Part shown: in pieces, positions 1,630-2,074 of the stretch
How the letters are laid out: each line of letters starts with the position of its first letter
How positions within the stretch are numbered: position 1 is the stretch's first letter
Source of the DNA: Escherichia phage vB_Eco-B1.1
Length of the DNA: 64,000 nt
Sequence record: ON871820
Strand: one strand, 5' to 3'
Made by a program: the position numbers and the translations under genes
The notes under the pieces: model-generated
Database searches by the model: none
Told to the model about the DNA's origin: nothing
What the model saw: only the letters and a program-made list of their open reading frames with translations

Positions 1630-1660
1630 GTTTACATCTCTGTTCTTCCGTGGTACTATA
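1630..1660 (+). promoter_or_regulatory. early-type promoter (GTTTAC -35, TGG-TACTAT extended -10)
   Basis: GTTTAC at 1630-1635, about 17 bp spacer, GTGGTACTATA at 1650-1660; part of a repeated cassette. Confidence 0.55.
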
Positions 1661-1693
1661 CAACTATCAACTGATGCGGATTTGGAGAATGAA

Positions 1694-2074
1694 ATGAAAA
1701 TCGCTATTTTGGTTATTGCATTAGGTCTTACTGGTTGTGTAGCTCAAGGACCGGTAGTAAATCAGTCTGATGTAGGAAAAATTGTAAACTGTTCAAGCAA
1801 GTTTTATAATCCTAATGTCAAGTGTTATAAAGAAGCTCCAAAGCAAACAGTAGAACAAATGCAGGCAAATTTTGACGAAGCTATTCGTCCAGATGAATCT
1901 GCTCAAGCATATCGTAATTCGGATGTAATTACACGCGAAGAAAAAATTGAAAACTACTGCGCCGAGCTTTGGGCTAATTGGGCTAATAATTACCAATGGC
2001 GTACTGGTAAAAATGCTCCGATGGAGTATGTAGTGAATTCTTATAATTCATGTGTAAAAAATTTGACTAAGTGA
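1694..2074 (+). CDS. putative lipoprotein (126 aa)
   Basis: ATG at 1694 preceded by GGAGAA; N-terminal signal peptide with LTGC lipobox; the track ORF 1505..2074 runs through promoter sequence so the upstream start is unlikely. Confidence 0.6.
   Translation: MKIAILVIALGLTGCVAQGPVVNQSDVGKIVNCSSKFYNPNVKCYKEAPKQTVEQMQANFDEAIRPDESAQAYRNSDVITREEKIENYCAELWANWANNYQWRTGKNAPMEYVVNSYNSCVKNLTK

Follow-up and report, generated by a model that had tools for sequence, protein, structure and literature searches.

A 52-nt segment that supplies a promoter -10 region, a leader, a ribosome-binding site and a start codon occurs twice, almost unchanged, in the 64,000-nt stretch of Escherichia phage vB_Eco-B1.1 (ON871820) analysed here (the window). 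We consider it likely that the repeat is a member of a single T4-type family of immediate-early expression cassettes, of the promoter-early-stem-loop (PeSL) type, whose copies recombine between loci. The phenomenon is already published (Arbiol et al. 2010; Comeau et al. 2014) and the window adds no new principle. It contributes clean examples, namely insertions and deletions that run from start codon to start codon, and swaps of the spacer in the frd.3 promoter.

The repeat pair and its genomic setting

The window derives from a Tequatrovirus with ~97% identity to many T4-like coliphages, and its + strand is the early-transcription strand. Gene order was taken from annotated relatives and T4. 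The end of gene 43 is followed by imm.1 (1694-2074), imm and 42; further along lie rIIA, rIIB, denB (28185-28742), an 87-aa ORF (28823-29086), ndd, 52 and motA (32441-33076), and the last stretch holds gene 32 (from 48062), frd.3, frd.2 and frd.1. Two features of this map appear to differ from T4. The topoisomerase II large subunit appears as a single 606-aa ORF (22659-24479), the T4-style gene 39/60 split of the subunit (with mobA) appearing to be missing from the window. Between gene 42 and the glucosyltransferase gene stands a 213-aa ORF (3218-3859) that carries a homing or intron-like endonuclease annotation in relatives; T4 lacks a gene here, b-gt coming right after gene 42 and segA past b-gt.

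Direct comparison of copy A (1648-1699) with copy B (28777-28828) gave 50 identical bases of 52. The earlier note had reported a recurrence with two mismatches, and these fall where it placed them, at positions 29 and 44 of the 52-mer. None of 100 dinucleotide-preserving shuffles produced such a match, and self-comparison of the window, a check that had been proposed, returned A/B as the leading direct-repeat family. When the 52-mer was sought across the window at up to three mismatches, no third site was found beyond A and B. Upstream, the AT-rich region and -35 element are also alike (1613-1637 versus 28742-28766, 20/25 identical), but the 13-nt block between these parts and the rest of the repeat, which contains the CCG opening the 52-mer, matches at just 4/13 positions (1638-1650 versus 28767-28779). 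The likeness ends at ATGAAA, and the outer flanks are at background (7-8/30).

Each copy was said to provide the extended -10, leader, ribosome-binding site and ATG of an unrelated ORF, and this too is borne out: the two downstream proteins have no similarity by BLASTP (E > 4) and match different families, phrog_1754 (A) and phrog_2390 (B), in both cases starting at residue 1. The imm.1 product behind copy A is plausibly a lipoprotein, judging from its lipobox. The related copies already listed at 20995-21069, 32378-32440 and 48945-49015 are real and present in the window comparison; copies at 29249-29330 and 49624-49704, together with an 18-nt partial copy at 29054-29071, were absent from that list. 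The window therefore holds at least five further copies besides A and B (Table 1).

Table 1. Cassettes, repeats and associated features in the window
Feature	Position	Strand	Remarks
Terminator hairpin AGGGACC-TCCG-GGTCCCT with T-tract, after gene 43	1525..1547	+	-13.9 kcal/mol, z = -3.3
Copy A promoter: AT-rich region 1613-1629, GTTTACA 1630-1636, TGn and -10 TGGTACTAT 1651-1659	1613..1659	+	
Copy A 52-nt repeat: extended -10, GGAG 1684-1687, ATGAAA 1694-1699	1648..1699	+	
imm.1 homologue, 126 aa, DUF5481, LTGC lipobox, behind copy A	1694..2074	+	
Copy B promoter: AT-rich region, GTTTACA 28759-28765, spacer, TGGTACTAT 28780-28788	28742..28788	+	
Copy B 52-nt repeat with ATGAAA 28823-28828	28777..28828	+	
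87-aa ORF, phrog_2390, missing in T4	28823..29086	+	
Partial third copy AATGAAATGAAAATCGCT, same as 1688-1705	29054..29071	+	
ndd.4 promoter/leader cassette	29249..29332	+	shares CTGTTCTTCCG and TACCCTATCAACTA with other copies
Cassette upstream of cef: ATATACA -35, TGGTACTAT, leader ATCAACTACTGATACAGAA, GGAGAATAAAATG	20995..21071	+	
motA cassette: hairpin 32362-32379 abutting CCAAAGCATACTG-TGGTACTAT	32362..32443	+	
frd.3 cassette, motA-type spacer, without -35	48945..49015	+	within fusion ORF 48062-49240
frd.1 cassette: GTTTACA, TGATACTAT, leader TACCCTATCAACTAA, GGAGAATAAAATG	49624..49704	+	
Exact RegB/S1 consensus sites	21057, 28813 (copy B), 49692	+	consensus search

Promoter, leader and candidate RegB/S1 site

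Copies A and B share one layout: GTTTACA, a 17-nt spacer, TGGTACTAT, a leader of ~28 nt, GGAG, 6 nt and ATGAAA. Scanning the window for TGnTAnnnT with TTTACA at a fixed distance 5′ identified ~15 early-type promoters, all intergenic and on the + strand. In A and B the pattern TTTACA-17-TACTAT with TG lies at 1631-1659 and 28760-28788, preceded by the AT-rich sequences AAGTTTTTTCACAAAAC (1613-1629) and AAAAAATTTCACAAAAC (28742-28758), respectively; the promoter region of copy B begins at the denB stop codon. The Shine-Dalgarno sequence GGAG is found at 1684 and 28813, with the ATG at 1694 and 28823. In the cassette upstream of cef, the ATG starts an 11-codon mini-ORF. These elements (AT-rich region, GTTTACA, 17-nt spacer, TGn, TACTAT) would constitute a strong sigma-70 promoter from which the host polymerase could fire right after infection. 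Transcription is predicted to start near A1666 in copy A, and would begin ~28 nt 5′ of the ATG, giving an unstructured leader. Early promoter use at the copies is thus predicted from sequence; in database records, the depositor's annotation of Z48569 marks the -35 and -10 elements of the motA copy in T4, and a terminator and promoter are annotated beside one copy in the record of phage Lutter. We also considered CCAAAGCATACTG as a MotA box and rejected it on reading the sequence, its spacing and orientation being unfit for a middle promoter.

The 3′ end of the cassettes resembles a known processing site. The RegB/S1 target has been defined as a single-stranded 11-mer, GGAGAAUAAAA (GGAGRAYARAA) (Durand et al. 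2006, PMC1702504). Exact matches to this consensus number three on the + strand, where 0.25 are expected, and all three lie at cassette 3′ ends. Copy B, with GGAGAATAAAA (28813-28823), is a perfect fit, and copy A deviates at position 8, having G in place of A. The GGAG site of the cassettes is accordingly a candidate for RegB/S1 cleavage: GGAG(A/G)A(U/C)A(A/G)AA may initially bind the ribosome and afterwards be the RegB cut site, at which the nuclease, aided by ribosomal protein S1, inactivates the early mRNAs. Folding predicts no structure in the leaders (z = -0.7 to +0.9), and the window, scanned in full against Rfam, matched no family; on these two results a structured-RNA reading of the leader was rejected.

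A second feature of the leader is the motif ACAACTATC straight 3′ of the -10, exact in five copies of the window and in every T4 orthologue. This conservation, the additional consensus regions known in T4 early promoters (Hinton 2010, PMC2988021) and the ACA motifs found in S1 ligands (Durand 2006, PMC1702504) would all suit a reading in which the leader, ACAACTATCAACT(ACT)GATAC..., is a cis-acting RNA or DNA signal whose copies are kept identical by purifying selection, whether as an S1-binding translational enhancer, through an effect of the initial transcribed region or as the site of a phage regulator. Such a signal may coexist with recombination, but as the explanation for the repeat we regard it as improbable. 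The leader has no predicted structure or Rfam family, and the other strong early promoters of the window are without ACAACTATC. In the phage collection, all records with the cassette were Tequatrovirus-like; searching with the 52-mer gave no match in those Klebsiella and Acinetobacter phages whose genes match its neighbours. A homogenised repeat therefore fits this distribution better than a deeply conserved signal.

Mosaic copies, whole-ORF indels and truncated cassettes

Comparing the cassettes segment by segment revealed that their parts have different closest relatives. The leaders of A and B are identical at 34/36 positions, compared with 9-19 for most other promoter pairs, while their spacers agree at just 5/14. 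The spacer of copy A is instead close to that of the ndd.4 promoter (29273-29301; CTGTTCTTCCG; 11/14), and the motA (32391) and frd.3 (48958) spacers match at 13/14, most other spacer pairs scoring 1-8. The leader of the ndd.4 cassette, TACCCTATCAACTA, recurs at 49668 in the frd.1 cassette. The ndd.4 and frd.1 promoters form a second cassette sub-family, with 78% identity over 72 nt (29249-29320 versus 49624-49695). The start of ndd.4 (29330-29362) is one A shorter than in T4 (ATGAAAAG versus ATGAAAAAG), so that a 10-codon ORF replaces ndd.4; the frameshift may be real or may come from a sequencing error in the homopolymer.

The mosaic pattern suggests that the copies are paralogues exchanging segments. 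Convergence alone would instead have each locus selected separately for its promoter, RegB/S1 site and ribosome-binding context with no exchange between loci, and the -35, TGn/-10 and GGAGAAUAAAA elements are indeed functional consensus sequences common to many early promoters. However, the identity also covers non-consensus positions, in the A/B leader and in the paired spacers at 11/14 and 13/14 (leader background 9-19, spacer background 1-8), and at 29054 an 18-mer recurs of which 12 nt are imm.1 coding sequence. At the frd.3 locus, moreover, the promoter that the spacer resembles varies with the phage. With identity spanning spacers, leader and even 12 coding nucleotides, pure convergence is unlikely; we give it still less weight than a conserved leader signal.

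Relatives carry the same family in varied arrangements. In T4 it occupies the orthologous loci 27059, 167065, 163652, 146854 and 6609, and includes a near-identical pair at 43/imm.1 and denB/ndd.6 whose identity extends through ATGAAAATCGCT. In about seven IMG/VR contigs with the exact core TGGTACTATACAACTATC, at least five different ORFs follow the A/B-type leader. Four spacer forms of the frd.3 promoter were seen: one in T4 and IME339, another in IMG/VR contigs, the motA type in JE01 and the deleted form of the window. Across the phage collection the 52-mer matched 1366 places in 532 records, the locus of the top copy varying from phage to phage. A 3-nt ACT indel in the leader is long in both copies in T4 and short in both in the window and ZN18. 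The two copies disagree in two IMG/VR contig sets, so homogenisation of A and B is not uniform, and as a demonstration of their concerted evolution the indel is not decisive.

Insertions and deletions of entire ORFs end at the cassettes. Flanking gene content in relatives, which the earlier note had named as a check, bears this out at both loci, each of them polymorphic across ~450 records; counts of the arrangements at A and B are approximate, since BLAST joins pieces across inserted ORFs. At locus A, a 78-aa ORF separates the cassette from imm.1 in JK23 and most close relatives but is missing in the window and in T4, with a ATGAAAAT repeat at the junction. At locus B, window positions 28102-28828 and 29054-30600 align to T4, and the intervening 237 nt are missing from T4. 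This segment is bounded by 12-nt direct repeats of the form AAT[A/G]AAATGAAA beside the 87-aa ORF, namely AATAAAATGAAA (28817-28828) and AATGAAATGAAA (the first 12 nt of 29054-29071), and amounts to 79 codons, in frame within an 8-codon mini-ORF of T4. The 18-mer at 29054 corresponds to the end of copy A plus the first 12 nt of the imm.1 coding sequence. As the indels end at SD-ATGAAA, ORF modules appear to be exchanged from start codon to start codon via short homology. We infer that the crossovers took place in the 8-12-nt repeats at the SD/ATG end and not across entire cassettes. Plain slipped-strand deletion would yield identical junctions, with no special role needed for the cassette.

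Two cassettes in the window have lost their -35. The first stands within a 392-aa ORF (48062-49240) that is an in-frame gp32-Frd.3 fusion (Pfam gp32 and Phage_FRD3), gene 32 lacking its own stop codon. Compared with JE01 and most relatives, the window is short of 106 nt here, comprising the final 8 codons and the stop of gene 32, the terminator, the AT-rich region and the frd.3 -35, and gene 32 therefore reads in frame into frd.3. In 429 matching records, the junction was found elsewhere only in GEP001, CrRp10, phiC600P9 and TB004. A two-step origin for it was considered and set aside, as a record search found the hypothetical intermediate GGTCCCCAAAGC in no record. In the second, the motA promoter (32362-32399) is 41 nt shorter than in T4: the T-tract, AT-rich region and -35 are gone, with CC microhomology at the junction, and the motA.1 terminator hairpin consequently abuts the spacer. 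This junction is common to nine database records, and GEP001, phiC600P9 and CrRp10 carry both. It is improbable, in our estimate, that these two deletions beside motA-type spacers stem from a targeted break or from selection for rewired early expression, as opposed to two unrelated accidents inherited together; were rewiring the case, read-through would replace promoter firing and gp32 would gain a C-terminal extension. Two further cassettes without the AT-rich region and -35, in which a terminator stem is joined to the spacer or the -10, are present in IMG/VR contig 2974787500, and such "half" cassettes thus recur.

These truncations also bear on whether a dedicated enzyme, a site-specific recombinase or homing-type endonuclease recognising the cassette or its hairpin, moves the cassettes in place of general recombination. 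That possibility was raised for GGGG...CCCC stems (Arbiol et al., PMC2839356), and the motA and gene 32/frd.3 deletions can be written with a single right end, just past TTTACAA; the common end is ambiguous because of the CC microhomology. The junctions, however, show the usual kind of short direct repeat (2, 8 and 12 nt), no recombinase gene adjoins any copy, and the hairpins vary in sequence or are missing. We regard an enzyme of this kind as very unlikely, the least probable of the explanations considered.

Our preferred reading remains a family of cassettes that recombine between loci. The copies would be paralogues, kept alike and re-assorted by the homologous and short-homology recombination of the phage; this mechanism, like the mobility itself, is deduced from comparison of the copies and loci. 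Crossovers within cassettes would exchange spacers and leaders across loci, and crossovers in the SD-ATGAAA end would add or remove entire small ORFs from one start codon to the next. An incoming ORF would therefore be already wired for early expression: placed between ATGAAA and the next start codon, it could be transcribed, translated and silenced by RegB as other early genes are. The cassettes would in this way explain the gain and loss of small early genes in T4-like phages with neighbouring genes undisturbed, an idea that has itself been published.

Comparison with known systems

PeSLs were defined in RB49 and phi1, where promoter and terminator activity was demonstrated and mini-circles were detected, their crossovers mapping between the -10 and the ATG (Arbiol et al. 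2010, PMC2839356). They were extended to T4 and PST with the consensus TTTACW-N17-TAYWAT, and the denB-ndd exchange in T4/PST is the example of Fig. 6A (Comeau et al. 2014, PMC4122927). The parts of the window cassettes match these published T4/PST PeSLs, and the denB-ndd interval, the locus of copy B, is itself a published example, which supports the PeSL assignment made in the earlier note. The agreement covers the AT-rich region, the promoter, the SD and start codon, the ORF indels and the mosaics; for the stem-loop it is uneven. As in the PeSLs of Comeau et al. (2014), many copies lie between small non-essential ORFs, ORF indels in relatives end there, and the SD and start codon of the downstream gene form the 3′ end of A and B. 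The sequence TTTACW-N17-TAYWAT is present at A and B and absent at 32391 and 48958, which have lost the -35 to deletion.

Unlike in the PeSL definition, a stem-loop near the promoter does not accompany every copy, and two window copies are without a -35. The motA copy has a strong hairpin adjoining its promoter. The stem-loop closest to copy A, the hairpin after gene 43 (1525-1542; z = -3.3), lies 88 nt 5′ of the -35, and the region upstream of copy B has no stable hairpin (-4.2 kcal/mol, z = -0.6). The terminator half of the definition thus applies only in part, because B is without a stable hairpin and that of A is 88 nt away. The junctions also differ from those in the PeSL papers, as they fall in 8-12-nt repeats at the SD/ATG; mini-circles have been demonstrated only for RB49/phi1, not for Tequatrovirus.

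The cassettes share their UP/-35/TGn/-10 architecture with the "uber" promoters of T4 early genes (Hinton 2010, PMC2988021), whose consensus fails to explain the near-identical spacers and the ~28-nt transcribed leader in certain pairs. At the 3′ end, the 11-nt GGAGAAUAAAA consensus is predicted to be single-stranded and overlaps the Shine-Dalgarno sequence, as in RegB/S1 sites (Durand et al. 2006, PMC1702504); the G at position 8 of copy A departs from that consensus, and the cassettes resemble the sites by sequence match.
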